64,000 nucleotides of DNA, taken from assembly GCA_963738405.1 (NCBI GenBank), contig CAVTWJ010000023.1:32001-96000 (forward strand), given 5' to 3'. The stretch comes from a candidate division FCPU426 bacterium (GTDB lineage: Bacteria > Oederibacteriota > Muellerivitia > Muellerivitales > Muellerivitaceae). This document shows positions 8,843 through 47,601 of the stretch, piece after piece. The translations under genes and the position numbers were made by a program. How positions within the stretch are numbered: the stretch's first letter is position 1; each line of letters opens with the position of its first letter. A model generated the notes under the pieces. That model was not told the origin of the DNA. It ran no database searches and saw only the letters and a list, made by a program, of their open reading frames with translations.

Positions 8843-8874
8843 TCTAGAAGACGAACAATCAAACAATACTAATG

Positions 8875-9874: not shown

Positions 9875-10153
9875 ATGCCAAGGAAGAAACACAGCGCCGA
9901 ACAGATTATATCCCTGTTGCGCCAAGCCGATGTCGAGCAGTCTAAGGGTCGTTCTGTAGAAGAAATCTGCCGTGAGCTTCAAATCACCCCGCACACCTAT
10001 TACCGCTGGAGAAAAGAATACGGCGGCCTCAAGTTGGACCAGGCCAAACGCCTCAAAGAACTGGAGAAAGAGAATTCCCAGTTAAAGCGCGTGGTGGCTG
10101 ATCTTTCCCTGGATAACCGCATCCTGAAAGACCTGGCCCGGGGAAACTCCTAA
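9875..10153 (+). CDS. IS3 transposase OrfA (HTH)
   Basis: MPRKKHSAEQI...TYYRWRKEYGG...RLKELEKEN; GGGAAAC slippery heptamer at 10141-10147 for -1 frameshift. Confidence 0.9.
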   Translation: MPRKKHSAEQIISLLRQADVEQSKGRSVEEICRELQITPHTYYRWRKEYGGLKLDQAKRLKELEKENSQLKRVVADLSLDNRILKDLARGNS

Positions 10154-27981: not shown

Positions 27982-28460
27982 TAAAAAACATCCCTTTTGA
28001 GACGGGCTGTTCACCCTATAGAAACAGGTAGTTTGCCTAATTAACCCGTCGATTGGTTAATGAATCATTATATCCATCCACTGTTTTAATCGAGTTTCTT
28101 CCCAACCCAACCCCTATTGACCCATCTACGATCGTTCAAATATTGCAAAGACTGGGTCGAAAAATAATTCTGATATGGTTCTTACCGCCGCTAGTTAATT
28201 TTCGAATGGAAGAAAGGGACACAGCTTGATAACCAAAGATTCCAAAACATCGGTACTGAAAATATTCATTCCCGACTTAGAGCGGACTGGAATAGGCATC
28301 GATCAACCAACGGTTCATAAGCTTACAAGAACGGCATGGTTTATTGCAATTTTACAAATCGGTTCCACTTTGTTTTCGTTGGTAACATCCCTTCGTCGAG
28401 CCGGAGACCCACTCATACAATTTTGCAAAAACTCCGAATCGAAAATAAGCGGATAAGATT

Positions 28461-31055: not shown

Positions 31056-33564
31056 GATTTTATTCCGTCTAAGTCCGGGCACTACAAGCAACTGAGCCAA
31101 GGAGGTGCCCCTATGACCTAGTTTGTTTGTTTCAATCCCGTCTAAGTCCGGGCACTACAAGCAACAGAAGCTACTGCTGTTGTCTCTGTTTGTCGGATTG
31201 ATGTTTCAATCCCGTCTAAGTCCGGGCACTACATGCAACTAAGAATAAAGGATTTAAAGCTCTGAAACAAAAGGGTTTCAATCCCGTCTAAGTCCGGGCA
31301 CTACATGCAACTTCTGGTTTCTCAAACCAGCGTTAAAGCTTGAGACGGTTTCAATCCCGTCTAAGTCCGGGTACTACAAGCAACCTTGACATTGCAATGG
31401 AATACCTTTTGGCCGAAAAAGTTTCAATCCCGTCTAAGTCCGGGCACTACAAGCAACAAAGACATTCCTGATCGACACAGCGCCGGTCCAGAAGTTTCAA
31501 TCCCGTCTAAGTCCGGGCACTACAAGCAACAAAGCCATGAGTAACCAACCAGAAACCGCAGGGCCAAGTTTCAATCCCGTCTAAGTCCGGGCACTACAAG
31601 CAACTTTGGATCTGACGCAGATTGGTCAGTTAAAATTTGGTTTCAATCCCGTCTAAGTCCGGGCACTACAAGCAACTGATATTTGTCATGTTTTTGCTCT
31701 GGTGAGCTTCTGTTTCAATCCCGTCTAAGTCCGGGCACTACAAGCAACTCTTAGAGGAGATTCAAATATCCTTGTTGTTCAAGAGTTTCAATCCCGTCTA
31801 AGTCCGGGCACTACAAGCAACAGGGAATTCCAGCGAGAGTCGCTTTTGGAGATGCCGAGTTTCAATCCCGTCTAAGTCCGGGCACTACAAGCAACCCAAC
31901 AACTGATTCGTATAGGGATCGGCATTACTGGTTTCAATCCCGTCTAAGTCCGGGCACTACAAGCAACCTGGTATAGCGAGAGTGGTCAAGTCAAATGGTA
32001 CTGTTTCAATCCCGTCTAAGTCCGGGCACTACAAGCAACTACAATTACCGCGAAGGTTTGATCGACGAGAAGCATGTTTCAATCCCGTCTAAGTCCGGGC
32101 ACTACAAGCAACGGTGGATCAACGCCGTCGCCAGTCGTCACGCCAGTGTTTCAATCCCGTCTAAGTCCGGGCACTACAAGCAACCGCAGAAACCGGGCAC
32201 AAAAGAGAAGTACAAGGTCAGGTTTCAATCCCGTCTAAGTCCGGGCACTACAAGCAACTGAGTTATTTTCCGCCATTCAAGGATTTGCTTCAAGTTTCAA
32301 TCCCGTCTAAGTCCGGGCACTACAAGCAACTAATTTAGTGATCGGTAGCCAAACCCTAGAAGGGTGAGTTTCAATCCCGTCTAAGTCCGGGCACTACAAG
32401 CAACCAAGGGGACATTCTCACCATTACCGTGAATCTGGCGGTTTCAATCCCGTCTAAGTCCGGGCACTACAAGCAACTTCGGGTTATGGATGGGTGGAAA
32501 AAAATGGTTTGTGTTTCAATCCCGTCTAAGTCCGGGCACTACAAGCAACCCAGCCATTGCACTGTTGGCATCTCCATATGTGGGAGTTTCAATCCCGTCT
32601 AAGTCCGGGCACTACAAGCAACTTCGGCTCATCAAGGCGACACCGTGGAGTTCGAAAGTTTCAATCCCGTCTAAGTCCGGGCACTACAAGCAACTCAGTA
32701 AAGTCCATCGAACATCCGTTTAGATGGGAGTTTCAATCCCGTCTAAGTCCGGGCACTACAAGCAACGTGTATAATCTGACTCCTTGATTTCTCGATTGGT
32801 TTAGTTTCAATCCCGTCTAAGTCCGGGCACTACAAGCAACATCCGGACCATGTTTTTAGGAATAATCGCCATAATGTTTCAATCCCGTCTAAGTCCGGGC
32901 ACTACAAGCAACACAAGGTGGAGGACGATATGATCCGTTTAACGCATGAGTTTCAATCCCGTCTAAGTCCGGGCACTACAAGCAACAGACGGCCTCGGCT
33001 TCAACCAGCGGGCAACAGCAGTTTCAATCCCGTCTAAGTCCGGGCACTACAAGCAACTTACCAAGAAGGTATTCCTTACGAGGATTCGAGGGTATGTTTC
33101 AATCCCGTCTAAGTCCGGGCACTACAAGCAACCGAAACTGATTGAAGAATCAAAGGAAGTTTGGGAGTTTCAATCCCGTCTAAGTCCGGGCACTACAAGC
33201 AACATCCGCAAGGGAAAGAGGTAGCTCACTTTCAATTCGTTTCAATCCCGTCTAAGTCCGGGCACTACAAGCAACACTTCGAGCGATGAAGGGATGCACG
33301 AAAACCTAGAGTTTCAATCCCGTCTAAGTCCGGGCACTACAAGCAACTTGACGAGGCCCTCACCGCCTCACCAGAAGCCAGGTTTCAATCCCGTCTAAGT
33401 CCGGGCACTACAAGCAACTGTTACTGAAATCGCATGGGCAGACATGAGTCTGAAGTTTCAATCCCGTCTAAGTCCGGGCACTACAAGCAACCAATATTGG
33501 TACGCGTCAAAGCCAGGGCAGTTTAATGTTTCAATCCCGTCTAAGTCCGGGCACTACAAGCAAC
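31056..33564 (-). CRISPR. CRISPR array: 35 repeats (37 bp) and 34 spacers (~34-38 bp)
   Basis: Plus-strand repeat GTTTCAATCCCGTCTAAGTCCGGGCACTACAAGCAAC. The minus strand ends in ATTGAAAC (Cas6 8-nt handle). Variant repeats cluster at the left (31056, 31203, 31275, 31348), marking the trailer, so the leader is at the right. Confidence 0.98.
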
Positions 33565-34713
33565 TCTACCATATTCCCAAGCAATTTGCGTATTTGTCGG
33601 TTCCTTTTGCCGCAAACCGTTTTCCACCTCCAAAACCCGCCCCTTTTGCGGAAACATCATTAAACCTTCAGTTTTTTCAGCTTCATTCACTTTGCTTTCC
33701 CCGTTTCCTATTTCGCTTTTGTTCAGTCTTTTCGGCCTGGGCCATTTACGTCCGTTCTCGAAGTGACAACCCAAAAAATCGAATCCTTCCTCCTGGGCAT
33801 CCACAATCCGGGTTTTTTCTGGGTGCAGTAAAAGACCAGCCTTCACCGTCCAGGCCCGTGCTTCATCAAGGGCTCTTTGGGCTTCCCACTCGCTTCGACA
33901 CAACACCATGAAGTCATCCGCATAGCGGACCATCTCATAGCCCCGGTTTTCCATTTCTCGGTCTAAAGGGTCCAGATAGATATTGGAAAGCATGGGACTC
34001 ACAACGCCACCTTGGGGAGTTCCTGTTTTCCGCCTCCACTTTCTCACTCCATCCGTGACTTCCTGGTTTAAATAAGCCCGGATCAGGTAAAGAACACCCC
34101 CATCGCCTATCTTCGCTTCGACCAGTTTCATGAGTCTCCCATGGGGGATGGTGTCAAAATAACTTTTCAAATCGGCATCCAGCACCCAAACATAACCATC
34201 TCCCAGCAACCGTTCGACCCGCTTCAGCGCATCCTTAACTCCCCGCATCGGCCGGAATCCATAGCTGTGGCTTGAAAAATCACGTTCAAAAATAGGTCCT
34301 ATGACGTTACGCAAAGCCGTCTGGGCCACCCGATCTTCCACCGTCGGTATTCCCAGGGGTCTTTTCGTTGGGCTTCCCGCCTTGGGAATCCATATCCTTT
34401 TAACCGCCTGGGGTATATACCGCCCCGCTCTTAACCTGATCGCGAGATTTTCGAGGTTTCGGGCAAGGCACGCCTTATACATATTGACAGTGGTTCCATC
34501 CAATCCGGCACTCCCATGGTTGGCCTTCACCCTCTTAAAGGCGCTCAGGAGATTCTTTGGTTGGTACACCAAATCCATCAGTCCCAGCCACTTTTCCCCT
34601 TTCATCCAATTTTCCAACTTCGTCAGCATACGATCTGTCCATATACTTGGTTCGACCCACAGCCACCTTTGCTGAATTGCGCCGGTGTTTGCACCCATTC
34701 CCGGCAGGATCAT
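33541..34713 (-). CDS. CRISPR-associated stand-alone reverse transcriptase, group II intron-like, thumb/maturase domain lacking
   Basis: VKANHGSAGLDG, RPLGIPTVEDRVAQ, SYGFRP, DADLKSYFDTIPH, GTPQGGVVSPMLSNIYL, RYADD, GFDFLG; ATGA overlap with cas2. Confidence 0.92.
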   Translation of the reverse strand: MILPGMGANTGAIQQRWLWVEPSIWTDRMLTKLENWMKGEKWLGLMDLVYQPKNLLSAFKRVKANHGSAGLDGTTVNMYKACLARNLENLAIRLRAGRYIPQAVKRIWIPKAGSPTKRPLGIPTVEDRVAQTALRNVIGPIFERDFSSHSYGFRPMRGVKDALKRVERLLGDGYVWVLDADLKSYFDTIPHGRLMKLVEAKIGDGGVLYLIRAYLNQEVTDGVRKWRRKTGTPQGGVVSPMLSNIYLDPLDREMENRGYEMVRYADDFMVLCRSEWEAQRALDEARAWTVKAGLLLHPEKTRIVDAQEEGFDFLGCHFENGRKWPRPKRLNKSEIGNGESKVNEAEKTEGLMMFPQKGRVLEVENGLRQKEPTNTQIAWEYGRVACSART

Positions 34714-35090
34714 AGGTTTAATCCCCCAGAACTAACCGAAGCCAGAAAACTCCGGTCCGATTTATCGCCAACTTCTGTTGCCGATTCAATGTCAGTCTCT
34801 TCCCCCATCAATTTATCAGCCTTCCCCCCATCTCCGATAATGATTGCTTCCATTTTCCCGCCTAAACACCTCTGACTAATAGGTAATAGCATGACCCTTC
34901 CATAGGAAGTCGGCGAAAGCTTGGATTTCAATTGCGCAAAAAATTCTGGGCGCCGATCCGGTTCCATCTCACCCATAAAAACCGAAAGCTGGACGCGGAC
35001 CAAGCCCGCGTCCTTGCAGGCCTCGGCCACCTTGGTCCGAAACTTGGTCTTTTCAATGTCATAAACGACTAGGACGTAGGTATGTTCCAT
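34710..35090 (-). CDS. cas2: CRISPR-associated endonuclease Cas2
   Basis: VLVVYDI...RTKVAEACKDAGLVRVQLSVFMG; acidic C-terminal tail. Confidence 0.9.
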   Translation of the reverse strand: MEHTYVLVVYDIEKTKFRTKVAEACKDAGLVRVQLSVFMGEMEPDRRPEFFAQLKSKLSPTSYGRVMLLPISQRCLGGKMEAIIIGDGGKADKLMGEETDIESATEVGDKSDRSFLASVSSGGLNL

Positions 35091-35161
35091 TTCAGTAAGG
35101 TAACCCGGAAAGGCGCCGGAAAACATTTTGCAATATTACTGAAATTTCGTTCAGGGTAGGA

Positions 35162-36370
35162 TTACCAGACCATTTTCCAGACCTCAAAGCGCGGGGTTTT
35201 CCCGGCCAGGAAACCCTTCAATTCAACCACTTGAGCATGGAAAATCTCGCTTAAAGGCATCCGGGAACCCTGAAAATCCACATCCACTTCCAGCCGGGAC
35301 AGGATCGACTCGGCCAGTTCTTTGCGGCTTTCATCCACCATGAGGCCTTCCTCCGTTCGGGCCAATCGGCCCTGGTTGACGAGCGCAATGACCGTCTTGT
35401 CCACGACCGGCTGGCGGAAAGGTTCCACGAGATCCAAAACCAGGGAAGGTTTTCCAGAGCGGTCGGTATGGAGAAAACCCGCGAAGGGCTCCAGTCCCTC
35501 AAGGACCACCGCCGACCAGACTTTGGCGTAAAGGATGCCGTAACCGTAATTAATCATCGAATTAAAAGGATCCTGGGCTCCGTGCCCTTCCCGGCCCGTG
35601 AATTCGACCTTGTTCCGGACCAGCAGACCAACCCCCGTCCAATAACACCGTGAAGCGGCCCCTTCGTACCCCATAAGACGATCCCTCAGGACCGACCAGT
35701 TGGCGTCCCCCAACTCCCCGGCCATGGACAGGACCGCCTCTCCCCCGTCCTCGATACCCTGAATAAGGCCCCTCAGTTCGTCATATTGGGCGGAGTCCTT
35801 TTCCTTGAGATACTTGCCGGAATACTTGAGCAAAGTGGCTTGGTTCCTGATCTTTCCGAGGATGAGACTGGAAGCAATGACTAGGCCTCTAGAATCTTTG
35901 AAGGCCGCCATTTGTTCCCTGCGGATTTCCACCGACTCATGCCAAGACGGGGAAGAAACAAGGGCATAGGGCTCGCCGGACGGCGAAACGAAGGCGATGG
36001 GGATGCGGCGGACGCAGAGTTCTTCCAGGAGGTCGGACGAAATGGAAACGCCCCTGGAGGAAACCATTACCTCGGCCAATTGGAAAAAGGGTATTTCAAG
36101 TAGGATCTCAACGCGTGGCCTGGGAGGCTTACCCGCCGCCTGTTCCTTCATGTCCCGGGCTTTTCTCAGGGCGCGAAACGGTACGATGGATGGGCCTTTT
36201 TCGTCGAAGGCGATCTCGACATAAGCGCCGACAGGCCGAAGCCCAAGGTCCAGATCGGCTTGGGCAGGCTCGGGCGCCCGCGCCATCACCACCCGGGGCC
36301 CCTTCACCACCAACCGCTCGGATTGCTTGGAAAGCGTTATTCCGAAGTCGTTGAGGATGATGCGTTTCAT
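35162..36370 (-). CDS. cas1: CRISPR-associated integrase Cas1
   Basis: LMGYEGAASRCYW, DPFNSMINYGYGILY, GLEPFAGFLH, SLVLDLVEPFR. Confidence 0.95.
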   Translation of the reverse strand: MKRIILNDFGITLSKQSERLVVKGPRVVMARAPEPAQADLDLGLRPVGAYVEIAFDEKGPSIVPFRALRKARDMKEQAAGKPPRPRVEILLEIPFFQLAEVMVSSRGVSISSDLLEELCVRRIPIAFVSPSGEPYALVSSPSWHESVEIRREQMAAFKDSRGLVIASSLILGKIRNQATLLKYSGKYLKEKDSAQYDELRGLIQGIEDGGEAVLSMAGELGDANWSVLRDRLMGYEGAASRCYWTGVGLLVRNKVEFTGREGHGAQDPFNSMINYGYGILYAKVWSAVVLEGLEPFAGFLHTDRSGKPSLVLDLVEPFRQPVVDKTVIALVNQGRLARTEEGLMVDESRKELAESILSRLEVDVDFQGSRMPLSEIFHAQVVELKGFLAGKTPRFEVWKMVW

Positions 36371-36467
36371 ATCCGGCCTCTTCCCGGTTTAGCGGGGTGG
36401 GGTAATGTCGAATATCATTTCAATGCGACAGCTTTAATACGCACCATTCGGAAAAATGACAGTTTTT

Positions 36468-37322
36468 TCATTTCGATTGGGTCCGCAAGGGAAGGATCTG
36501 AAGCTGTCCCATACCCATCGTGGAACCCTTGCCTATATGCAGCCATTGAAGGGCCGCGAAAAGAGGCTTGAAAGAACCAGGGCCATCGGGTAAATCCAAC
36601 TTCCCGGATACACCCTGCATATCGATTTCCCGTTCTTGACGGCCCGAATATCGCACTAGATCAAGCCGGTCACCCAACCACAGGTTAGAGGGTATCCCAC
36701 GAGCTTCCGCCAGCATTTCCTTCTGGCCCGAACGAAGAACCTGCTTCATCCCATCCTCCACCAACATTGACACCCGGCGGATACCCGCGACGACCATGTC
36801 GGTGAAACTTGGATTTTCGACAAGAATTCCTTTTCGAACCAACCGGAGGGGGGCGGTAAAGCTGAAGGAACAAGCCTTTTCTTCCAGGGGCCAACGCACG
36901 TTACTCGCCTTCCAACCACTGAAACCCCTATCCCATTCCAGGAATGAACCCGAGGGGCTTATCGGTCGGGTCATCCGGACGTGGAATCGCCTGCGTTCTG
37001 GACCCAAACCCATCCCGGAAGCAACGTCCCATGCCCGCATGAGGGTTACATCATGTTTTGTGGCATCACCCAACAAAATGAATTCCAAGGCGGGAGAGTC
37101 CCCAGGGTCCGGGGATGCGGGGCGAAAAATATAACCCGGGGGCTGATCAATAGAATTCTTGTCACCCTCGAAAACTTCCCGGTAAGCAACCGGGTCCAGA
37201 TCATGTAGCGCCGCACCCCATACACCCCTCAACATGGGGATGGTAGCCCTTACGCCAGGCGTATCCAGGGATATCCTGCGGGGCAAGATGTTTATTCCGT
37301 CTAAAATTCCAGGCCAATCCAT
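36468..37322 (-). CDS. cas6: CRISPR RNA-processing endoribonuclease Cas6
   Basis: MLRGVWGAAL, FTAPLRL, RYSGRQ..IDMQG..G, C-terminal Gly loop HIGKGSTMGMG. Confidence 0.9.
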   Translation of the reverse strand: MDWPGILDGINILPRRISLDTPGVRATIPMLRGVWGAALHDLDPVAYREVFEGDKNSIDQPPGYIFRPASPDPGDSPALEFILLGDATKHDVTLMRAWDVASGMGLGPERRRFHVRMTRPISPSGSFLEWDRGFSGWKASNVRWPLEEKACSFSFTAPLRLVRKGILVENPSFTDMVVAGIRRVSMLVEDGMKQVLRSGQKEMLAEARGIPSNLWLGDRLDLVRYSGRQEREIDMQGVSGKLDLPDGPGSFKPLFAALQWLHIGKGSTMGMGQLQILPLRTQSK

Positions 37323-37338
37323 AAATCACGCTATCCAA

Positions 37339-37374
37339 GTTTAATCCCGTCTATATCCGGGCACCGTCTGCAAC
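37339..37374 (-). repeat. Solitary degenerate CRISPR repeat upstream of cas6
   Basis: GTTTAATCCCGTCTATATCCGGGCACCGTCTGCAAC versus the array repeat; same orientation; CCCG/CGGG stem intact. Confidence 0.85.
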
Positions 37375-37382
37375 TTTATTTC

Positions 37383-37700
37383 CTATGAAACCCTGGTCAA
37401 GATTTTATAGTCGTATCCCAAATCCCTTAACTCTTTCTCGCTCAAGTCTTTCCCCATTGGGGGTCGCTCTTTCAGTTTGAATACTAAGACTTGGTCTCCG
37501 GGTTTCGGATCCCATTGTTGGCGGTTGAATGAGCATTCCACACCCAAATCATCCGCGATCAATTGACAGGTTGCTTCATGTCCGATAAAAGAAACCAGAC
37601 CCGGCTTGGCGAATTCCCTAGCCGTTTCTAATGTAATGGTTTCCAAACGATAAGTTCCATCAGATGGGAGAATCGCGGTATTGATAACAGCCATCACCAT
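37383..37700 (-). CDS. crn2: DUF1874 / YddF / AcrIII-1-family ring nuclease (Crn2-like)
   Basis: INTAIL..DGTY, SFIGHEAT (catalytic GH), NR, LVFKLKERPPMGKDL..E..GY. Confidence 0.85.
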   Translation of the reverse strand: MVMAVINTAILPSDGTYRLETITLETAREFAKPGLVSFIGHEATCQLIADDLGVECSFNRQQWDPKPGDQVLVFKLKERPPMGKDLSEKELRDLGYDYKILTRVS

Positions 37701-37742
37701 TGCTTAATTCCTTTCTAATAACGAAGAACAATTAAAAATTAA

Positions 37743-38912
37743 TTATAAGTATTTTCGAAATAGTTCTTGATCATCATAGTTATCCGCAATGGTTTGAATA
37801 TCCCCGCGCAGGATGAGATTAATGCCGTAAACCTTGGCGCGATCAAAAGCCGCTTTCTTCGCCCCTTCATTATTTTGTAAATAGACCGAAGTCGTGATCC
37901 CCCAGATTTTCGTTTTTAAAGCCTTAATGTTTGTAACAATGCTAAAAATCTTAAAAAGAAAATCAGCTTTTTTATCGAACATTTGAAAACCGGATTTACA
38001 CTCAATGCCATATAAAGTCTGATTTTTAATAAAACAAACATCCAATTCTTGATTCTTCTTATGCAAATGGCATCCCGGTAATACCTGGGTTATCCCATTA
38101 AAGGTTTGGTGTTTTACAACCCAATTAAACATGAACGCTTCAAGCCATCCACCTGTTAAAAAATCCCCCGTTTTAGGTGATGTCGTGCCAACTAACCATT
38201 CATTTTCTAAATTAAGCCCCAATAAAGTAGCCATATCATTTGTAAACAAATCCTTATTAACTTTAATTTCACCCGGTCGCACTTCAGTTCCTTTGCGAAT
38301 AATTTCTTTACGATCATTTTTAACCAGAAAAGACCACAAATCTCCGCTAACTTTTGCGGTGGCCAATGCTAAATTTTCTAATTTAGGAAAGTTATTCTTT
38401 TTTCCAGTCACAACGGACCAGTTATCTATTTCTTCCCCATAACCCGCCAAATATTCATTGATATTTAACGGATAATCGCAAAACACATCCTTTTGATCGT
38501 TCTCAAATAAAATCACATCCGGTTTTCCAATATCGATATACAGATAATCCACATTCCCAAATTCACCGTTAGAGAACGTGTCATAAGCAGCAATTGACAT
38601 TAATTTATTACCGCCGGTTAAATTCACGTACCATTCCGTTGCTCCCTTTGCGAGGATTTTTTCGATACCACTTCTTAAATCATTCTCGATTTCCGAGATG
38701 GACAATTCATTAGTAAGAAAAATATCTTCTAAAATTTTCACGCCAGGATTCCCATTAACTTTCAACGCATCCTTTAACCACTGGGTATGATTCGTATTTA
38801 CATCTAGTGTTTTTTGGGTAACCACCAAAACCACCTGGTCAGGTTTTAAACTTTTTATGGGTAAAAAGTTAGGAACATGCTGGGCTGAAACAAGACAAAC
38901 CATTGTTTTCAC
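37743..38912 (-). CDS. Card1/Can2-like CARF + PD-(D/E)xK nuclease effector (DUF1887)
   Basis: CLVSAQHVPNFL, VNLTGGNKLMSIAAY (CARF); GGWLE, ELDV...YGIECKSG (nuclease); AT-rich. Confidence 0.85.
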   Translation of the reverse strand: MKTMVCLVSAQHVPNFLPIKSLKPDQVVLVVTQKTLDVNTNHTQWLKDALKVNGNPGVKILEDIFLTNELSISEIENDLRSGIEKILAKGATEWYVNLTGGNKLMSIAAYDTFSNGEFGNVDYLYIDIGKPDVILFENDQKDVFCDYPLNINEYLAGYGEEIDNWSVVTGKKNNFPKLENLALATAKVSGDLWSFLVKNDRKEIIRKGTEVRPGEIKVNKDLFTNDMATLLGLNLENEWLVGTTSPKTGDFLTGGWLEAFMFNWVVKHQTFNGITQVLPGCHLHKKNQELDVCFIKNQTLYGIECKSGFQMFDKKADFLFKIFSIVTNIKALKTKIWGITTSVYLQNNEGAKKAAFDRAKVYGINLILRGDIQTIADNYDDQELFRKYL

Positions 38913-38938
38913 GTTAGAACCTTTCTGATTAGCTGGTT

Positions 38939-41359
38939 TTATCTGCCATCCTTCCGGTCATTGCGTCTGGTATCTTGGTTCTGGGACTGATTGCCCCCGC
39001 TATGGTCGTTCGGTCGGGCGTGTCTGGCTGGGTCAAACGGCTCGAATTTTTTGTATTGCTTTCGGTGATCCCCCGTTTCACTAACCCAATCAGGATCACT
39101 GCCCGAGTAAAGGTTATAACCGTATAAAATATCACTCTGAGGTTCCTTGGGATTCAGGATCGGAAGAGGTTGAGCCCGCAGGCGATCTTTCTTTCCCGCC
39201 TTGTCGCTGAGGGGCCCAGCGATATGAAGAGTCTCCAAACCCTGAGGATATTCACCCTCTCTCGGGGATTTGAGCGGCGTTACGTGACGCTGGTACCAAA
39301 TATGTCCGCCCCAATTTTTCTTGTTGTTATTCTCAATGGCAGCTCGGGGATACCGAAGTTTCGCGACGGGCTTTTGAACCTTCTGCCAGATATCTAGCCG
39401 CGACAATAATTGGACGTCCTTGCCTAGTTCTGCTTTGTAATTCCCAGGCAAGTCCGCAATGGTCTCATCAGCCCTGGTCATCACCAGGGGTTCGCCCAGG
39501 GTCCCGTCATCACCCAGGGGACGAAGTGTCGCCCGAACGATCCTGCAATGGCCCAGACCCAGGGGCTTGCCCCCGCCCAAGCGCCAATCCACCGAACAAG
39601 AAGCCAAAACCAATGTCACTTCACGGGGGCTTAAAGCCCGAAGGGTGACACGCAAGTGACCCAATGGGGCGTTTTCCTCCGGCAAAAGATCCCCTGTTTT
39701 ATTTGCCTTTTGGTGGGGATCTTTCATGCGGCCCGCATAATCCGAGATACCTTGATTAGCAAAAAGCCACGGGGCGGCCGAGCCCCTCTCGCTACTGGTC
39801 CGGTAAACCTTATAACCCCTAAGGGGTAAACCATGATTGGCTACCAGGTCCGCCATTGAGTCCCCCGAGACCTCCCTATAGAAAGCCGCGCAGCCTGGAT
39901 GGGGTTGCTGCAATGGGGCCAAACTTACGGCCTTCATCTTGTCCATACAGCTTTTGAAAATCAGGTTACCCAAACGTACCCTTGCCGCGAAAGATTCTGA
40001 TGGTACCTGTTCGCGGTCGGCCCAGATGGGCACCTCCTTGGTCATGTCAGGTCGAGGCACCTGGCCGAATAGGTTGGTTACCTCGTCCACCAAGCCGTCC
40101 GGGTTAAACGCATCAGGTAAAACGTGTGGATGATGAGCCGATACGATGTCCAAGAGGCGCTCACCCGTCCGTCCCCAACGTGCCCATTGAATGGATTTCA
40201 CCTCATCAGCTTTCGTTATGTTATGGCACTTGGGATCAACCGGTTCAAGCCAGACTAAATCACCTTTCATAAGTTCTTTTTTATCCGCATGGCGGTGCCT
40301 GCCGTAAAATGCCGACCATAGTTGAGTTGGCAGAATGATCTCTTCTTTCCCGGCTAAGAAGATCCCCTCCCGCTTCCCCCTGTTATTGATGGGCCCCGAC
40401 AATTTCACCTGCCAAGCATGAGCCTGACTTGGGGTCTTGGACAAACTCGTACCAGCCTCGTTAGACCAAATAGTCTCACCCTTGCTGCCCGGCTTGGGCC
40501 GGTTCAAGGGAACATTGCATTGACGTGACGCTTGTTCAAGGTCTTCCCACTTAATCAATTTCGTTTTTCCCAGCCGGACCCGTCCCGGACGATTCACTTC
40601 GCCCACCTCGACCACTTCCGCCAGAAACGGGTTCTCTGGGACAATTCCCTGCGTGGCCGGCGTGGCGGGTCCCAAACGAGCGTCACGGCCCTGGCACAAC
40701 CAAGCCTCTTCGTCGAGGTGGCCCAAAGTCCCCCCTGTGAGGACTGAAAGGAGAGAACGAAGTGACCCTCGCACGCCGGTTGCGGGAACAACAATGTCCG
40801 TGCCGATGGCCAAAGCTTTGTAGGTCTTGTGGTCGCTTCCCTTGTTGACCGGATCTGATTCGTTGGTCAAGAGGGGGGAAAGCAATTTCACTTCCAGGTC
40901 TAGCACTCCTGTGAAACGATCCTTTTCTACCTCATCTACGCTCAAAAGCGTGGGTTTAACACGCCTGGGGGGTTTGGAAGCGAATGGGATAAAGGTGTAG
41001 GGATTGTGGAATGGTTCTCCTAAAATACTTGGGTCACCCGCACCCGCGTTATCCGCATGCGTGTTGGTCGGAACGGGCCGTCCGGCCCCACCCGGTCGGT
41101 GATTCCTGGCGTTACGGTCGGGCCTAGGCTCCGGTTTTCTCGATGGATTCTGCCCACTTGAACTGGATGCTAGGTTGCTCCCGGACGAAGCCCCTGCTTT
41201 TTCATATTCCGCCCAGAGTTTATCCGCTTCTATTTTCAGGTCGCCTTCGCATTTTTTTCCATTATTGCGCCAGCGATTGAAATCATCGACCTGGCTAGAT
41301 GAAAGCTGGCGTTTCTGAAGGTTTTCTCTAAACAATTTAATGGATGGATGTTCTGGCAT
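38939..41359 (-). CDS. cas7: Type III-D large Cas7 with insertion (TIGR03986-like RAMP)
   Basis: FHNPYTFIP, VPATGVRGSLRS, LFGQV, ARVRLGN, RGYKVY, LGGGKPLGLG. Confidence 0.85.
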   Translation of the reverse strand: MPEHPSIKLFRENLQKRQLSSSQVDDFNRWRNNGKKCEGDLKIEADKLWAEYEKAGASSGSNLASSSSGQNPSRKPEPRPDRNARNHRPGGAGRPVPTNTHADNAGAGDPSILGEPFHNPYTFIPFASKPPRRVKPTLLSVDEVEKDRFTGVLDLEVKLLSPLLTNESDPVNKGSDHKTYKALAIGTDIVVPATGVRGSLRSLLSVLTGGTLGHLDEEAWLCQGRDARLGPATPATQGIVPENPFLAEVVEVGEVNRPGRVRLGKTKLIKWEDLEQASRQCNVPLNRPKPGSKGETIWSNEAGTSLSKTPSQAHAWQVKLSGPINNRGKREGIFLAGKEEIILPTQLWSAFYGRHRHADKKELMKGDLVWLEPVDPKCHNITKADEVKSIQWARWGRTGERLLDIVSAHHPHVLPDAFNPDGLVDEVTNLFGQVPRPDMTKEVPIWADREQVPSESFAARVRLGNLIFKSCMDKMKAVSLAPLQQPHPGCAAFYREVSGDSMADLVANHGLPLRGYKVYRTSSERGSAAPWLFANQGISDYAGRMKDPHQKANKTGDLLPEENAPLGHLRVTLRALSPREVTLVLASCSVDWRLGGGKPLGLGHCRIVRATLRPLGDDGTLGEPLVMTRADETIADLPGNYKAELGKDVQLLSRLDIWQKVQKPVAKLRYPRAAIENNNKKNWGGHIWYQRHVTPLKSPREGEYPQGLETLHIAGPLSDKAGKKDRLRAQPLPILNPKEPQSDILYGYNLYSGSDPDWVSETGDHRKQYKKFEPFDPARHARPNDHSGGNQSQNQDTRRNDRKDGR

Positions 41360-41361
41360 GC

Positions 41362-42783
41362 TTATACCCCTTCCGAAAATAGTTTTTGAAACGTGATATT
41401 GGTGGATTCACTCTGCAGACCGGTAGCCCGCGATTCTTTTTCCAATCGCAATCGACCGGAAGCCTTGCTGGTACCCACCCTCAGAACACCGTAATGCAAG
41501 GCCGCCAGGGAAGAGGCAAGCCAGCGCACCTCATCCCCGGAGGGGTTTTGAATGGTGACTTGTGTCTTAAACCTGACCCCGCCAGTCAAAACGTGAGCAT
41601 CAAAAAGAAAGCCCTCGTTGGCCCCCCCTGAAATCCGATCGATGGCCACATGCTTTCGTAGCTGAACCTGGTTATCCGTAGAAGGCTGTTCGGAAAGTGC
41701 GTCGCCTATGTGTACCCGGCCCCGGGAATACAGGCTCCCGAACAACCGCATGATGGGGCAAGGAACTTCTTTTTCCAGGGAACCTGGATCGGCAATCAGG
41801 GCGTCCTGGATATGAACACGTTCATGATTCTCGGCATAACCCCATCCCACTTGATCGCCTTTTGGCGCGAGATCATTCCCGATCATGTCTAAATGCCGTG
41901 CATAGTTATCCGCGACAGGATGCCCTTCTCGGGCGGCCAGACGACTCATCCAACCCCGGAAGACACCACGTAGGCTGGAACCGGGCAATCGCCACCTGGT
42001 CTTGCCGTCGGCACCGACGACTTTTTGGGGGCCAAGATCGAATTCTCCTCCGTCCCCTTCGCCGACTAACAGGTCCTCCCCGGGTGGTATGGAAAGCACC
42101 AAGTCGATCCGCAGGTCCTTATCACCCGCGCCAACAGGCATCAGGGTTTCTCCGGTTATGGGAAAGATCCCCTCCCGGATTTTGTATCGCTCATCCATGT
42201 ACTCGGCCTGCTGATCCAAGTTGGCGCAATCAAAGGCACGATAGGAAGGTTCCCCCACTAGCTGGAGACGACCCAAGCCCCGAGAAGAATGGCCCCCAAC
42301 AGTCAACCCGCCTTTCAAAAGCGCCACCAGGCTTCCCATAAATGCCCTTGCCTCATCCCGCTCATCGCATTCGAGCCAGAGGACTAGGTCGGTCGATGTG
42401 TCCGGTGGCAGGGCCTCGACCTCGAAATGCGCGCCGCCCATGACCGATCCTGTGTGCCGGTCGATGGCGTTATGGGTGCGCCAGCTCTCGCCTTGACCGC
42501 CGGTCTCAAGCCGACAATCGGACACCTTAAGGAGGCTTGGATGGTAAGCGTCGTTCGTGTTGGCGTCGCCGAACCACTTCGTGACAAGGGCGTCTTCCGT
42601 CGCGACCCCGTGATGCCGGGCCCAGGCATGCCGCAGAGCGCCCGCCAGGGCTGTACCCCGCAAGACCGGTCGGCCTATCCCGTCGCGGGCCAGGGCCAAC
42701 CGATTGGCCAATTGCCCTTCACCTGGACTGACGCCTTCCGGAAACACGATTTTGGAGATTAAACGGTGGATGATCTTTGCCAT
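41362..42783 (-). CDS. cas7: Double-RAMP Cas7-Cas7 (Csm3-like) fusion
   Basis: Two RAMP units: GTALAGALR/NAIDRHTG/VGGHSSRGLG and PGSSLRGVFR/HVAIDRISGG/VGTSKASG; TAATG coupling to the upstream gene. Confidence 0.85.
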   Translation of the reverse strand: MAKIIHRLISKIVFPEGVSPGEGQLANRLALARDGIGRPVLRGTALAGALRHAWARHHGVATEDALVTKWFGDANTNDAYHPSLLKVSDCRLETGGQGESWRTHNAIDRHTGSVMGGAHFEVEALPPDTSTDLVLWLECDERDEARAFMGSLVALLKGGLTVGGHSSRGLGRLQLVGEPSYRAFDCANLDQQAEYMDERYKIREGIFPITGETLMPVGAGDKDLRIDLVLSIPPGEDLLVGEGDGGEFDLGPQKVVGADGKTRWRLPGSSLRGVFRGWMSRLAAREGHPVADNYARHLDMIGNDLAPKGDQVGWGYAENHERVHIQDALIADPGSLEKEVPCPIMRLFGSLYSRGRVHIGDALSEQPSTDNQVQLRKHVAIDRISGGANEGFLFDAHVLTGGVRFKTQVTIQNPSGDEVRWLASSLAALHYGVLRVGTSKASGRLRLEKESRATGLQSESTNITFQKLFSEGV

Positions 42784-44831
42784 TAGCGCCCCTCCAGACC
42801 CGAAGTTAAAAGGTTGTGCCAAACACGAAGAGCCTTCTTGGCTTTTTTCGGGTCATTCTGGATTGCCTGAATCAGTACCGCCTGGACATGTTTCCAACGG
42901 CCCCAGATCCTCCTCGACCTGGTATCTTTCTGGCGTTCCAGGAAATTGACTGCTTCCTGCCCGCCCTGTTCTTTGATACGCGCCGCGACCGCCGCGACCT
43001 GGGACGCGCTTAACCCGTCGTTCTTGGACATTTCACACCACCCCAAGGCCCATTCACCTGCCTTGTCGCTAGCCAGTGTCGTCAGGCTGGGTTCGGGCAA
43101 GTACAGTCCCTCCGCAATGCCCGGGTGGGGCAAGACGGCCCCGTAACCCTGGATGCGCCCATCCAGATCCCCCCCCGAGTCAACCCCCAGCCCCCGGTTA
43201 ATCTGATTCCAAAGGTTTTCCGGCTCCTTTTCCAGCACAAAAACGGACCCGGGCAGGAAAACCCGGCGAGCCGCCAAACGACCTGCGGGATCGATCCGAC
43301 CGCCCAAGCCGTAGCGGTTCCAGCCAAATCGGACACCGCAAGCAGCCATGTGGCCGACCTCGGCAACCCTCGCCGATTTTTTGGGGGAGGCAATCTTACC
43401 CCACCCGCTTTCCTCCACCAGACGGGCCAGGGCGGTCTCGGCGCATTTCACCTGCCAATCATCGGGAATGGCCGCGGGGGATTGAAGAACGAATACTTTT
43501 TTCTTCCAGCCCTTCAATTGCGTGGCCGGTTCTATGTTCCTTATCAACTTCAAGAGCCCCCCCCCACGAACGGTGCGGGCCTTGCCAAAGACAAATAGCG
43601 GGTTTTTTTGGACCAATGATTGGAGTTTTTCAGCGGCCTGTGGAGGTAGCGTGACCCAACCGGCGTAATTAAGCGGGGCCATCGCCTCGACTGTGAACAA
43701 GTTGCGCTTGTCCTTACCTTCCGGGTCGTAATGAACGGCATGAGCCGTGAGAATGCGAGGCATCTCACCCGACTTCCAGAGGAGGACTTTCCCTGAGGAA
43801 TCGCGAAGTAAGACACCGTCAGTGCCTTTTAAGGGGGAAGCCTTGGGAACCTGCGTCCAGTCATAGGGCTCGACCGCCGAATCGCGGAATTGTTGGTCTA
43901 TTTTGAGCTTGCTCATCCTGTGGCTCAATGAAACCCGCACCGGGTTCATCAGTTCCCCGTTACCCTCCTCTAGGAGGGTCGGTAGGAGGGGCCAGGCCCT
44001 GGTCCTGCGGTCCAAAATAGCGGCATGGGCTAGGGCCGAATCAGCTTGTGCTAACCGAGAAATAAGGGCGCCCAATACCGCCGAGGCAGGGATTCCCAAT
44101 CCGGTTCGCAAGATGTTGTTGCCCATATCAGGTGTTTCCGGGCAGCAAACCGGGTCCTCGGCCGAAAATGTAAGCCTCAATGTCACGGCCGGACCATCCG
44201 GTTCTTTGGCGGCAGGGGTTACCATGGGGTTTGGGGTTTCACCCGGCAATCCCTTTTCCATTTCCCTCGCCAGTTCCCGCAAAAAGGCTCCCGGGGTCCG
44301 CTTTTCGTCCGCAATTTTGACCAGACAGGAGCCGCTTCCACGGTTACGGTTACCGCCCACCGCTTCCATGGTCAATAGGGCCAGGGATACGCCAAGGGTA
44401 ACAACCGGCGATGCGCCTTCCGCAATCTCGATTTTCCCCATAAATTTTGTTCCGACGGCCACAGCTTCCGATGTTCTAAGCGTCTGGTTCACTGCCACCC
44501 CCAGTTCCCCCACGGCGGTCCTTGTGATCGGATGGACAAGACCTTGGGCCCCTTCGGGCAGGCGGGCATCGTGAACTTTCACCTGACCCTGATACCCTGA
44601 ATCCCCCTCCTGGCCTGGACGACCCAGAACCCGATTGGTCAGGGTCGGCCAATCCCGGCTGACGGCGATCCGGCCGAGGGTGTCCCTCAAAAGACCCTTG
44701 AGGTGGCTGCTTCGGACCACCGGGCGGTCCTGATGATCCCGTGCCACGATGTCGTTGACCGTTTCACCACCCTTCCCGCTGCCAATCTCTCCATCGCTTA
44801 ACAACTCGATCTCATATTGGATTGTTGTCAT
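42783..44831 (-). CDS. Cas7-Cas5(Csx10) fusion with helical C-terminal Cas11-like domain
   Basis: SSHLKGLLRD, VGGNRNRGSG (Cas7); IPASAVLGAL, FGKARTVRGG, PGSVF, RIQGYG (Cas5/Csx10); helical tail LSASQV... Confidence 0.75.
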   Translation of the reverse strand: MTTIQYEIELLSDGEIGSGKGGETVNDIVARDHQDRPVVRSSHLKGLLRDTLGRIAVSRDWPTLTNRVLGRPGQEGDSGYQGQVKVHDARLPEGAQGLVHPITRTAVGELGVAVNQTLRTSEAVAVGTKFMGKIEIAEGASPVVTLGVSLALLTMEAVGGNRNRGSGSCLVKIADEKRTPGAFLRELAREMEKGLPGETPNPMVTPAAKEPDGPAVTLRLTFSAEDPVCCPETPDMGNNILRTGLGIPASAVLGALISRLAQADSALAHAAILDRRTRAWPLLPTLLEEGNGELMNPVRVSLSHRMSKLKIDQQFRDSAVEPYDWTQVPKASPLKGTDGVLLRDSSGKVLLWKSGEMPRILTAHAVHYDPEGKDKRNLFTVEAMAPLNYAGWVTLPPQAAEKLQSLVQKNPLFVFGKARTVRGGGLLKLIRNIEPATQLKGWKKKVFVLQSPAAIPDDWQVKCAETALARLVEESGWGKIASPKKSARVAEVGHMAACGVRFGWNRYGLGGRIDPAGRLAARRVFLPGSVFVLEKEPENLWNQINRGLGVDSGGDLDGRIQGYGAVLPHPGIAEGLYLPEPSLTTLASDKAGEWALGWCEMSKNDGLSASQVAAVAARIKEQGGQEAVNFLERQKDTRSRRIWGRWKHVQAVLIQAIQNDPKKAKKALRVWHNLLTSGLEGR

Positions 44832-46369
44832 GAGTTCACTTCCGTCACCCAGTTCATCCTTGAATCTTCTTCCAGTAGGAGTAGCGCATCTATCACGGGT
44901 GTGGTACGCACGTTATGCCCGTTTTTGACCGATTTTTTCCATTTGCCTCCGGGTTTTTGGGGGCTTTCACCCTCATCCAGGTCGTTACTCAAAACTTCCT
45001 GGTTCTTCGCCAAGCTCTTCGCGAAGATCTTTCGGTCAAAAAAACCGGCCCTCATCCCTTTCAGCACACGGTGGCGGACCGAACCGGGCACTTTGCTGTA
45101 TTCCTGGGCTAACCGAATGAGGTCTCTCAGATCCGCGACCGGATAAGGCCTTTCGGTCAGTTGGATCCTCTCGTTCTGTAGATCGGCGTCCTGAAAAACC
45201 AATTCACGCTGTCGGCGAGCATGGGGTGTGTCGACCAGCCCCTCGGTGACCGATTCCCAGTCCACAAAAGAGGGGGTCGGAAAAACTTTTTGTTCACGGC
45301 CACCGCCCTTGGCGCTCGCCAGAAGCAGCTCGGTATAGGAGATGGCGGTGCTTAGCGGCAGGCCAATCGGGGCGAAGAGAATCCCGGCCGAAAGGGTGAT
45401 GTGGGATCCGGTAGCGGGCCACAGGTCAATGCCCCCCTTTTTCGCAAGGGCTGCCAATTCGGTGCTTTTCTCCTCGAAAACCCTGCAGGCTTCCCTTACA
45501 AAAGTCATCGCGTAACCGACATGACAAAGAAGGATAATGTCGTCCCCGCCGACCACGAGAGGCCGGATAGGCAGGATTATCTCCCCCCCGTCGACATCGA
45601 AACCTTCCTTTAGAGCGCGGATTTCTTCAATAATTAAGTCGATACCCTTCCTGCATGCTTCACGGCTGCAGGTGTCCAGGTCGCGACTCATCCGCCGAAG
45701 CCAACCGGTGAAAACGTCCGCCCGGTCCCCTAATTTTTCCACGGCCTTTCGATGCTGGGTTCCAATGTCGTTCCCATCCATGGCAATCACCGCCCAGCGG
45801 TTTCGGCCACCTAGTCTCTGCAAGGCTATTTTTCCCGCTGGGGTCGATTTATCCACGTCGTGGAAAAAGCTGAATTTCAAACCTTCTCGGCCATGACCAT
45901 TAACCCCCCCCAGCAATTCATCCTCAAAATAACGGTCCATCCGGTCCCCTTTTTGCCAGACCCGTTTTTTAACGATGTCGCTGACGCCGTTATTGGCCGG
46001 GTAGAGCCCGCTATCGGCACAAGGTTTGCCTCCCAGTTCGATGCTGGAAGGTAGCCAGGGATAAGTTTGGTCCGCGCCGTGGATGGCGACCGTGAAGTCA
46101 TCCGAAACGCCGAAACAGATGGTTAAACCATCCCGGTGCGCGGCTTCTACCAACTTGCGTCGTACCCTTTCCACTGCCTGGTCATTGGTACACTTGTAAG
46201 CGCCTTTTCCGCCGCCTGAAAAGAGGTGCTCTCCTTCCGGATCATTTATGCCTGGCGCGGTCACCCTGTCGTAACGGTCAATCAGCGCGCTTGATCCGCA
46301 AATGTATTTAAGGCGTGGGATTGAAAAGATGAAAGATTGAATGCCTTTTAAGTCATAGCAAAGATACAT
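44828..46369 (-). CDS. cas10: Cas10, HD-less, with intact GGDD palm
   Basis: Begins directly at DLKGIQSFIF; SGGGKG; AVIAMDGNDIG; PLVVGGDD; TLSAGI; 513 aa. Confidence 0.92.
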   Translation of the reverse strand: MYLCYDLKGIQSFIFSIPRLKYICGSSALIDRYDRVTAPGINDPEGEHLFSGGGKGAYKCTNDQAVERVRRKLVEAAHRDGLTICFGVSDDFTVAIHGADQTYPWLPSSIELGGKPCADSGLYPANNGVSDIVKKRVWQKGDRMDRYFEDELLGGVNGHGREGLKFSFFHDVDKSTPAGKIALQRLGGRNRWAVIAMDGNDIGTQHRKAVEKLGDRADVFTGWLRRMSRDLDTCSREACRKGIDLIIEEIRALKEGFDVDGGEIILPIRPLVVGGDDIILLCHVGYAMTFVREACRVFEEKSTELAALAKKGGIDLWPATGSHITLSAGILFAPIGLPLSTAISYTELLLASAKGGGREQKVFPTPSFVDWESVTEGLVDTPHARRQRELVFQDADLQNERIQLTERPYPVADLRDLIRLAQEYSKVPGSVRHRVLKGMRAGFFDRKIFAKSLAKNQEVLSNDLDEGESPQKPGGKWKKSVKNGHNVRTTPVIDALLLLEEDSRMNWVTEVNS

Positions 46370-46425
46370 CGAGAACCCCTTTCAATCATTTGTTCGAGGC
46401 CGCGTAATAACAAGACGTTTGATTC

Positions 46426-47601
46426 TCAAGACAGTAATCCTAATACCTTAATTGAAACCAACGTCCGATCAATCCCCAAAACCGCCTGGAGAGGATGCGC
46501 ACCTGAGCCCCGCCCCAGTTCGTTGACGATCAGCGCTGCTTTCGATGGGCCGAGTTGGGTGATGAGCCGTTTCCCAAGGCGGGACCGCGACGCCCCCCAC
46601 CAATTCGTCTCTAAAATCATGTCTGTATCAAATGGGCCCGTTAATAAATCATCATCGTTTTTGAAAATCCTGTAGGCAATCCTGCAAAACTCCAAATCCT
46701 TGGGTGTTAGCATAATTTTGATCGCATTCCCCGCGTTTGACTGCGCCTGATTGGTTAACCTACAGGGCTTTAACTGACAGGTCTCGCATGACTTAACATC
46801 CCGCGGACAAAGAATTCCATTTTTGCGCCACGCCAAAAGCGCCACCCAGAGGCTCTGTTTCGGGTCCAGGTCAAGCCGTTTCCCGTCCACTTCGATGTAA
46901 CCAGGGGCCTTTTCCAAGTTCACCGTCAAGCTGACCTGCTTCATGTTGAATTCCTCAAAAGCCGTCGTGAGCGAGGTTTTCAATAAATCGAGATGGATAT
47001 TCCTGAAAAAGTTATTGAGGCGAGGAAAAGGCACTTCAAAAAGATTAACCCATTTTATTTCGGCCTTCTTTTTGGGGTCAGGATACCACCCATTCGAAAG
47101 TTTCTTTTCCTTTCCCGGGTCCATGAGAACGTGGTAAAGAGTGTCCCCTTCCCTGGCGAAGGCGGACATACCAAGGGTCAGGTAAGCGGACATGGTTTTC
47201 CGCCCGCCCGCGAGGGAAGCTTGAAGCCCCACCGCCGGGTCTTTTGTGAATTCGTCCAAACGTTGGGCGATTTCCTCTTCCATGGCGGCGTTGGCCTCGC
47301 TGTCGCCAAGATCTTTTTTTATTTTCATTTTGGGGGGAATATGGATTTGAGATTCACCAAAAAGCGGGAAGGTTTTAGCCGGTAATTTCCAATCTTTCCA
47401 AAGCCTGGCAAAAGGGCCTTTCTTCATATCGATCAAGCCGGCTTCCAGAATTTTATTTTTACCTTCGCTGGTCGTGATCACATGAATTTCAGTAAGAATC
47501 ATTTTGTTTCTTACCACCAAAGCCCAAATCGCCTCGGTCAATACGGCCGGTGATTCCCCACCCGTCGCCAGAAAAATACTCTTTTTCTTATTCATAAACA
47601 C
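46426..47601 (-). CDS. NE0113/Csx14-type CARF protein with a C-terminal Cys-rich, HTH-like domain
   Basis: LATGGESPAVLTEAIWAL, EIHVITT, ASLAGGRKTMSAYL, GDTLYHVL. Confidence 0.8.
   Translation of the reverse strand: MFMNKKKSIFLATGGESPAVLTEAIWALVVRNKMILTEIHVITTSEGKNKILEAGLIDMKKGPFARLWKDWKLPAKTFPLFGESQIHIPPKMKIKKDLGDSEANAAMEEEIAQRLDEFTKDPAVGLQASLAGGRKTMSAYLTLGMSAFAREGDTLYHVLMDPGKEKKLSNGWYPDPKKKAEIKWVNLFEVPFPRLNNFFRNIHLDLLKTSLTTAFEEFNMKQVSLTVNLEKAPGYIEVDGKRLDLDPKQSLWVALLAWRKNGILCPRDVKSCETCQLKPCRLTNQAQSNAGNAIKIMLTPKDLEFCRIAYRIFKNDDDLLTGPFDTDMILETNWWGASRSRLGKRLITQLGPSKAALIVNELGRGSGAHPLQAVLGIDRTLVSIKVLGLLS

Follow-up and report, generated by a model that had tools for sequence, protein, structure and literature searches.

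Why would one copy of a repeat from a CRISPR array stand apart from that array, directly in front of the gene for Cas6? The question is raised by a stretch of DNA of 64,000 nucleotides (nt), hereafter the window, from a candidate division FCPU426 bacterium (positions 32,001 to 96,000 of contig CAVTWJ010000023.1, assembly GCA_963738405.1). In it, a solitary repeat copy of 36 nt occupies positions 37374..37339 of the minus strand and ends 16 nt before the start codon of cas6. A preliminary description of this DNA had proposed that Cas6 regulates itself through the repeat or generates from it a mimic of CRISPR RNA (crRNA). We lean, with guarded confidence, toward another answer, in which the repeat is the vestige of a trailer-end repeat left behind at cas6 and Cas6 probably still cuts it, as an unselected by-product. 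The identity of the repeat, its uniqueness in the window, the formation of its hairpin, and comparative gene orders were computed, and from these we infer both its descent from a terminal repeat and its cleavage by Cas6.

A Diverged Copy of the Array Repeat Precedes cas6

The solitary element (GTTGCAGACGGTGCCCGGATATAGACGGGATTAAAC) is a genuine diverged copy of the CRISPR repeat of its own locus, and it is recovered by a covariance model, by nhmmer, and by alignment to the array repeat. In minus-strand order, an open reading frame (ORF) encoding a DUF1874 protein ends at its stop codon, after which come 8 nt, the solitary repeat, 16 nt, and the ATG of cas6 at 37322. The repeat thus lies within the 60-nt intergenic gap between crn2 and cas6, as the preliminary description had placed it. 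The name Crn2 for the product of the DUF1874 gene (37383–37700) is our assumption, after the DUF1874 ring nuclease family. The working array, 34 repeats of GTTGCTTGTAGTGCCCGGACTTAGACGGGATTGAAAC at 33564..31129, is on the same strand as cas6 and is located 3.8 kb downstream of the solitary repeat, beyond cas6-cas1-cas2-RT (RT, reverse transcriptase). It is followed on the minus strand by a degenerate 35th terminal repeat (31092..31056; GTTGCTTGTAGTGCCCGGACTTAGACGGAATAAAATC) that was overlooked by the pattern search and the covariance model.

The covariance model (R1) represents the repeat family with 36 repeats, those of 35 related loci plus that of the array in the window, and was run unfiltered over the whole window. 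The solitary repeat scored 28.8 bits (E 1e-5) and ranked after the 34 array repeats; the next nonarray match scored 12.4 bits (E 0.36). It is the sole lone repeat found by the model in the 64 kb, no other match lies within 3.7 kb of it, and there is no repeat-spacer series around it. Its local alignment to the array repeat scores 37, compared to a maximum of 27 in 40 dinucleotide shuffles. A weak look-alike of the repeat tail (CGGACTTAGAGGGTTTTAAAC; 27897–27918, minus strand, inside the ORF at 27547–28014) has a score of 27, equal to the best of the 40 shuffles, is missing from the covariance-model list, and was treated as chance. The 10-mer GGGATTAAAC at the 3' end of the solitary repeat recurs once in the window, at 34716–34725 on the minus strand, in the tail of cas2 and 2 nt before the RT start codon. 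That copy has no hairpin or further similarity and, with ∼0.12 chance copies expected, is probably coincidental.

Repeats of the family are 37 nt long and of the GCCCCG-loop-GGGGATTGAAAC type. Relative to the array repeat, the solitary repeat has five substitutions at positions 6–10 of the 5' arm, two differences at positions 20–21 of the loop, and a 3' tag that has lost G33, leaving 29 of 37 positions identical if the 5' arm is aligned without gaps or 31 if gaps are allowed. The CCCG/CGGG stem is retained, as are both ends. This is the distribution of changes that the preliminary description had reported for the 5' arm, loop, and handle. Among columns conserved at 90% or more in the other 35 loci, 17 of 18 are kept, the missing one being G33, and the solitary repeat has the 4-bp stem at columns 14–17 and 26–29 with its 8-nt loop. 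G33 is invariant in all 36 family repeats; the family has the 8-nt tag ATTGAAAC, where the solitary repeat has a defective 7-nt tag, ATTAAAC (37339..37345, minus strand).

Two features speak to the ancestry of the element. First, the CCCG/CGGG stem is found in one of the 36 aligned repeats, that of the array of this locus, and in the solitary repeat; stems of the other 35 are CCCC/GGGG (30), CCTC/GAGG (three), and two singletons. Because they have this stem in common, the solitary repeat belongs to this lineage and is close kin of the array. Second, its 5' arm, GTTGCAGA, agrees with the family consensus GTnGCAG and with the repeat of locus L001 rather than with the GTTGCTTG of the array, and the solitary repeat therefore looks like an older state of the repeat. 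Two trailer-end array repeats (31203–31239 and 31275–31311) still have GTTGCATG, which brings them one step nearer to the family consensus as well as to the solitary repeat. The five differences in the 5' arm probably arose in the array and not in the solitary repeat, so the positions of the differences do not provide a clean test of selection. Three of the four canonical repeats at the trailer end (31203–31239, 31275–31311, and 31348–31384) carry one substitution each; in the last of these, G13 is changed to A and adjoins the stem.

The Hairpin Is Kept and Is Probably Cut by Cas6

The stem of the solitary repeat pairs CCCG (37361..37358) with CGGG (37349..37346) around an 8-nt loop (37346..37361, minus strand). 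The hairpin is predicted in the minimum-energy and centroid folds of a 131-nt context as well as in the element folded alone. Flanks of 40, 70, and 100 nt give it mean pair probabilities of 0.96, 0.98, and 0.82, respectively; for the array repeats, median hairpin probabilities are 0.72–0.80. The 131-nt context is no more stable than shuffled sequences (z = +0.53), and the 4-bp hairpin alone stands out.

The protein predicted to act on this hairpin is encoded by cas6 (36468..37322, minus strand; 284 amino acids), which matches PF10040 (CRISPR_Cas6) with an E of 2.3e-10. An AlphaFold model of it has a predicted local distance difference test (pLDDT) score of 94 and a predicted template modeling (pTM) score of 0.91, and the best fold matches of this model are Thermus thermophilus TTHB231 (E 6.5e-10) and TTHA0078 (E 5.2e-9). 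A search of the Cas6 family sequence profile against solved structures returned no matches. The Thermus enzymes TtCas6A and TtCas6B are reported to cut at the 3' base of the repeat hairpin and to read the stem, the two bases 3' of the cut, and the two bases before the stem, with repeat nucleotides 9–13 adding binding energy in TtCas6A (PMC3902920). They are also described as single-turnover enzymes that likely remain on their product (PMC3902920). For Cas6-2a of the Synechocystis III-Dv system, the cut is reported between G29 and A30, and formation of the hairpin in its context accounted for 43 of 50 cleavage outcomes in vitro (PMC5741207).

The solitary repeat resembles the substrates so described. 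Its hairpin is predicted to form in sequence context, as in the substrates cut by Cas6-2a, and the element shares with the array repeat both the G11-T12-G13 that precedes the stem and the A30-T31-T32 that follows the cut; by analogy, the bases flanking the cut would matter for the Cas6 of the window too. Of the nucleotides that add binding energy in TtCas6A, 11–13 are kept and 9 and 10 are changed relative to the array repeat, which may weaken binding. Because the hairpin, the bases flanking the cut, and most conserved positions are kept, Cas6 probably still binds and cuts the solitary repeat between 37346 and 37345, which would leave a new 5' end at 37345.

Repeats before cas6 in Related Loci Are Array Ends

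At an E of up to 0.001, 256 homologs of Cas6 were found, the closest being 52–55% identical; four matches in a plasmid collection were distant (22–47% identical) and none was useful. Gene orders were compared across 80 loci (L001–L080) identified by scanning genome contigs with an alignment of 32 Cas6 homologs. Repeats in these loci were mapped with nhmmer and the cas proteins of the window with tblastn. All relatives compared are distant, with Cas6 proteins no more than 52–55% identical. Their arrays nonetheless belong to the same repeat family and show compensatory variants of the stem.

Arrays commonly precede cas6 in these relatives. The commonest pattern, in 22 of 80 loci, has cas1, array, and cas6 on one strand. 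With at least 400 nt upstream of cas6, 75 loci could be assessed (five were too short upstream). In 14 of these, a co-oriented array of at least three repeats stops no farther than 400 nt from the cas6 match; another five have one or two repeats in that interval, and 56 have none. Together, 19 of the 75 loci have co-oriented repeats ending in this interval. Because arrays end this close upstream in about a quarter of assessable relatives, the comparison suggests that cas6 is often transcribed there as the trailer of precursor crRNA (pre-crRNA). Distances vary: the gap to the start of the tblastn match ranges from 31 to 388 nt, and from repeat end to start codon it ranges from 4 nt (L001) to ∼150 nt (L015). 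In L056, the last two spacers of the cas6-adjacent array (9785–9903) are identical, a duplicated repeat-spacer unit.

The repeats nearest to cas6 are frequently damaged or set apart. The 3' tag of the terminal repeat is decayed in L039, L053, L044, L019, and L015, and in several loci (L039, L044, and L053) the cas6-adjacent terminal repeat has a broken stem or is truncated. The family thus does not require that a cleavable site precede cas6. In L024, 430 nt separate the last repeat from the other repeats of its array. In L015, a near-perfect lone repeat, with the G of its tag changed (ATTAAAAC), lies ∼150 nt before cas6 and is separated from the array by ∼7.4 kb (2344–9753) of ORFs without Pfam matches, with a fragment of an IS4/5 transposase (8773–9579) directly upstream of the lone repeat. 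Where a repeat stands alone before cas6 in relatives, it is a detached end of an array.

The gene order of the window, cas6, cas1, array, is present in eight loci. A wider set of 16 loci of the same build was defined by having that order or by having effector, DUF1874, or card1 genes before cas6. In none of the 16 is there a repeat-like match within 400 nt upstream of cas6. When the repeat of each locus was aligned to its own cas6-upstream region in the eight same-build loci with arrays, scores were 12–19, compared to 37 in the window. The preliminary description had recommended looking for the same arrangement at homologous loci, and there it is absent; where relatives do have repeats before cas6, these are the trailer ends of arrays or pieces split off from them, which matches the relic that it had named as the alternative to its own proposal.

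The Solitary Repeat as the Probable Relic of an Array End

These patterns suggest a history for the element. The ancestral locus would have had cas1, cas2, array, and cas6 in the same orientation, an order common in this Cas6 family, and would have shifted from array-then-cas6 to cas6-cas1-cas2-RT-array. One old repeat would have stayed joined to the front of cas6 when the array moved. The solitary repeat would now be transcribed within the 60-nt gap before cas6, and cleavage by Cas6 at the 37346/37345 junction would divide the operon RNA in two. The upstream piece would carry the effector and ancillary genes and end in the hairpin, perhaps with Cas6 still bound. The downstream piece would carry cas6-cas1-cas2-RT, and its 5' start would be the 7-nt defective tag followed by the 16-nt leader.

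We favor this history because arrays of relatives end at cas6 but none of the 16 loci of the same build has the element. It is also in line with a survey of standalone repeats, in which repeat-like sequences are reported as not significantly enriched between cas genes in type III loci and type III mini-arrays are judged to be degraded, nonfunctional repeats (PMC10120712).

Several observations weigh against a simple relic. With 17 of 18 conserved columns kept, the preservation of the element is very good for a neutral relic and could reflect selection or a recent origin. In L001, the closest of the loci compared (Cas6 52% identical), a partial repeat hairpin at 9950–9973, comprising the stem-loop and ATTG, lies 157 nt past the last repeat of the array and is the best nonarray match of that locus (15.4 bits, E 0.018). 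The bases equivalent to its tag end exactly at the GTG start of a cas6 ORF of 296 amino acids, and this recurrence of a hairpin at the start of cas6 hints that it has a use. Because all relatives compared are distant, the lack of conservation says little against a lineage-specific function.

Traces of a rearrangement are also scarce. The one candidate is an unexplained 14-nt identity, TTAGACGGAATAAA, between cas6 codons 7–11 (37291..37304, minus strand) and the 3' part of the 35th repeat (31072..31059). The string occurs at just these two sites of the window, and the similarity has an alignment score of 29, with no score above 22 among 200 shuffles. A repeat and cas6 could have recombined and left this identity as a scar, or it could be coincidental. 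A cas6 pseudogene was not found in the array trailer (tblastn E of 14 or higher). Flanks of the solitary repeat do not resemble the array leader: its upstream flank scores 17 against the leader (null median 18) and 18 against the trailer (null median 17), and its downstream flank scores 14 against the leader (null median 15). Downstream of the solitary and 35th repeats, an alignment score of 23 was reached in 85 of 500 shuffles; the apparent GTGATTT..ATG similarity between these two flanks is therefore at chance level and was dropped. Lastly, the repeat begins just 8 nt past the stop codon of the upstream gene and has no leader remnant, although the simple collapse of an array would be expected to leave one.

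Alternative Readings

Among the alternatives, selection for a Cas6 processing or autoregulatory site fares best, and we regard it as unlikely though far from idle. Cas6 would bind or cut the hairpin 23 nt before its own start codon, uncoupling the effector mRNA from the cas6-cas1-cas2-RT mRNA and tying the output of cas6 and the adaptation genes to the level of Cas6, while the damage to the tag would prevent the cas6 mRNA from entering the effector complex. The pattern of preservation, with the hairpin and conserved columns kept and the tag alone damaged, is as expected of such a site, as are the high probability of the hairpin in context and the repeat-derived hairpin that abuts the cas6 start codon in L001. 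With co-oriented repeats close to cas6 in 19 of 75 loci, read-through into cas6 and its release by Cas6 are plausible, and the fold relatives of the enzyme, as single-turnover proteins, are reported to stay on the hairpin product (PMC3902920).

Translation signals point the same way. The 16-nt stretch between repeat and ATG (37323..37338, minus strand) has no clear Shine-Dalgarno sequence, and cas6 thus lacks the purine-rich run that is present 5–10 nt before the starts of six other genes of the operon (orf222, the NE0113 gene, cas10, the gene for an 806-amino-acid RAMP protein, card1, and the DUF1874 gene). The comparative data speak against a selected site: the element is absent from all 16 same-build loci, several cas6-adjacent terminal repeats are broken or truncated, and the distance from repeat to cas6 varies among relatives. 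The literature searched also yielded no paper in which Cas6 is described as acting on the mRNA that encodes it. Of the self-regulation first proposed for this locus, the premises stand, namely, a repeat copy on the mRNA strand, an apparent single operon, and a hairpin that is kept, but the arrangement does not recur in loci of the same build. Preservation and the L001 hairpin keep a selected role alive, and it is possible that the solitary repeat regulates cas6.

Another alternative, which strikes us as rather unlikely, makes the position of cas6 itself the device. If cas6 is habitually the last cistron of pre-crRNA, a cut in the final repeat would free the cas6 mRNA, and the solitary repeat and the L001 hairpin would be the minimal form of that arrangement, kept once the array had moved elsewhere or been split off. 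The supply of Cas6 would be coupled to transcription of the array, and the tag would be damaged deliberately, so that cleavage of the cas6 mRNA would not lead to its capture by the type III complex. In the literature searched, we found no description of a feedback loop in which Cas6 acts through a repeat in its own mRNA.

It is improbable, in our judgment, that the region acts mainly as promoter and 5' leader for a distinct cas6-cas1-cas2-RT(-array) transcript and that the likeness to a repeat is incidental to this role. A promoter-like TTGACC, 16 nt, TAAAGT is present at 37373..37400 (minus strand), the sole such site on the minus strand in 33400–39200. Its second hexamer, TAAAGT, overlaps the first two bases of the solitary repeat. 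A start site used from it would fall in the 5' arm of the repeat, and in transcripts starting at 37368–37364 the hairpin still forms with a probability of 0.86–0.94. This is a match to a consensus that may not be the promoter type of the host, and promoter-like sites are not enriched, with four in 5.8 kb compared to 6.5 expected from shuffles. A promoter would leave the repeat copy unexplained, and its presence is compatible with the other readings.

We consider it quite improbable that the element yields a crRNA-like RNA, either as a Cas6 product loaded into a type III complex in the manner of ncRNA60 of Sulfolobus solfataricus (PMC4041471) or as half of a degenerate mini-array similar to CreA/CreR. 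Besides that precedent, what favors it is a second, weaker repeat-like string of 14–18 nt inside cas6, 34 nt downstream of the solitary repeat. However, the tag is only 7 nt long, the invariant G33 being absent, and the cas6 leader and first codons make up the 40 nt that follow the repeat. The only full complement of those 40 nt in the window is their own antisense strand, and the next best complement, of 12 nt, was equaled or exceeded in 33 of 200 shuffles. The covariance model found no second repeat at spacer distance. A mini-array of two repeats with a spacer of 20–60 bp was likewise rejected: the model has one match, and the weak second string leaves ∼12–24 nt between the two. The position is not conserved in the 16 same-build loci, themselves distant relatives, and type III mini-arrays in the survey are described as being without targets (PMC10120712). 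The crRNA mimic of the preliminary description is accordingly disfavored, with no target in the window and a defective tag. As for chance resemblance to a repeat, the shortness of the element is all that speaks for it, and the E of 1e-5 with the family model, the failure of all 40 shuffles to reach its score, and a lineage-specific stem in common with the array make it negligible.

The Locus around the Solitary Repeat

The solitary repeat separates two sets of genes on the minus strand. Immediately upstream is the DUF1874/STIV_B116-like protein (37383..37700; 105 amino acids; PF08960, E 8e-20), preceded by effector and ancillary genes at 37743..47601 that encode an NE0113 CARF protein, Cas10, Cas7-Cas5-Cas11-like, Cas7-2x, and TIGR03986 RAMP proteins, and Card1. 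Three of the upstream genes are RAMP fusion genes. The four effector proteins, corresponding to the Cas10, Cas7-Cas5-Cas11 fusion, Cas7-2x, and insertion-bearing TIGR03986 Cas7 of a type III-Dv effector, have their best matches to four different chains of Protein Data Bank entry 8s9t (E 1.3e-9, 3.8e-5, 5.4e-16, and 2e-5), all partial in length. Because separate chains are matched, the setting of the solitary repeat is identified, by similarity of its proteins, as a type III-Dv-like locus. Cas10 (44828–46369) is short, with 513 amino acids, and matches the second palm domain model and the 8s9t Cas10 chain only; a Pfam search of it reported no HD domain.

Downstream of the repeat, cas1 (35162–36370), cas2 (34710–35126), and a group-II-type RT (33541–34713) lie on the minus strand between cas6 and the array. 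The RT ORF extends 24 nt into the first array repeat. Its protein matches the model of group II intron RT/maturase proteins only up to position 278 of 353, and the last ∼60 codons probably cover the array leader. In 33000–38000, Rfam gave no matches at an E of up to 1, and hence no group II intron RNA; across the whole window at gathering scores, Rfam matched only a tRNA.

Implications

If the solitary repeat is a relic, its value is modest. It records that a type III-Dv-like locus was rearranged from the order cas1, cas2, array, cas6, and it indicates that lone repeats in type III operons need not be regulatory, in agreement with what the survey reports (PMC10120712). If Cas6 does cut it, the mRNA of the effector half of the operon would meet a different fate from that of the adaptation half, and Cas6 itself would make the 5' end at which the cas6 message starts; the locus would be a simple case in which an RNA-processing enzyme shapes the operon that encodes it. 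Arrays that end upstream of cas6 across the relatives are maybe a more useful lead than the solitary repeat itself.

Comparison with Known Systems

Sites for the Cas6 protein Csy4 (Cas6f) have been engineered to separate the cistrons of synthetic operons by cleavage. A Cas6 hairpin placed between two genes would likewise insulate the mRNAs on either side of it, the difference being that the Csy4 site is a designed device. In the literature searched, we found no natural counterpart of the Csy4 operon insulators; the window would provide one if cas6 is habitually released as the last cistron of pre-crRNA.

The standalone repeats and single repeat units reported in large numbers from CRISPR-cas loci by Shmakov et al. 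in a 2023 preprint (PMC10120712) are, as here, isolated copies of the repeat of the locus, outside the array and intergenic in a cas operon. Enrichment and conserved regulatory mini-arrays are reported in that survey mainly for types I and V-A. Unlike those mini-arrays, the element in the window is single, is in a type III-Dv-like locus, and has a spacer-like part without a target. The CreA/CreR systems of types I and V-A, as described, likewise have degenerate repeat material in a cas operon, which is processed by Cas6. There, two repeats flank a pseudo-spacer that pairs with a promoter, whereas no second repeat or target was found in the window. The viral solitary repeat units, or RNA anti-CRISPRs (Racrs), are likewise lone repeats that could bind Cas proteins (PMC10651486). 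They are encoded by phages or other mobile elements (PMC10651486), whereas the solitary repeat is flanked on both sides by host cas genes that share its strand.

In ncRNA60 of S. solfataricus (Sokolowski et al. 2014; PMC4041471), a single repeat-like motif is similarly near a cas6 gene in a type III setting. The motif lies beside cas6-3 and is cut by Cas6-3 in vitro, and ncRNA60 is reported to be enriched in the CSM complex (PMC4041471). Because Cas6-3 cuts this motif, Cas6 proteins can act on solitary repeat-like sites. As described in that study, ncRNA60 is a separate noncoding RNA that is loaded in CSM and its motif has no base-paired stem (PMC4041471). The element in the window, as known from its sequence, differs in that the RNA downstream of it is the cas6 mRNA and its tag is one base short. 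The degenerate terminal repeats of related loci differ from it in being attached to an array; like them, the solitary repeat stands directly before cas6, with a decayed 3' tag and an older 5' arm.

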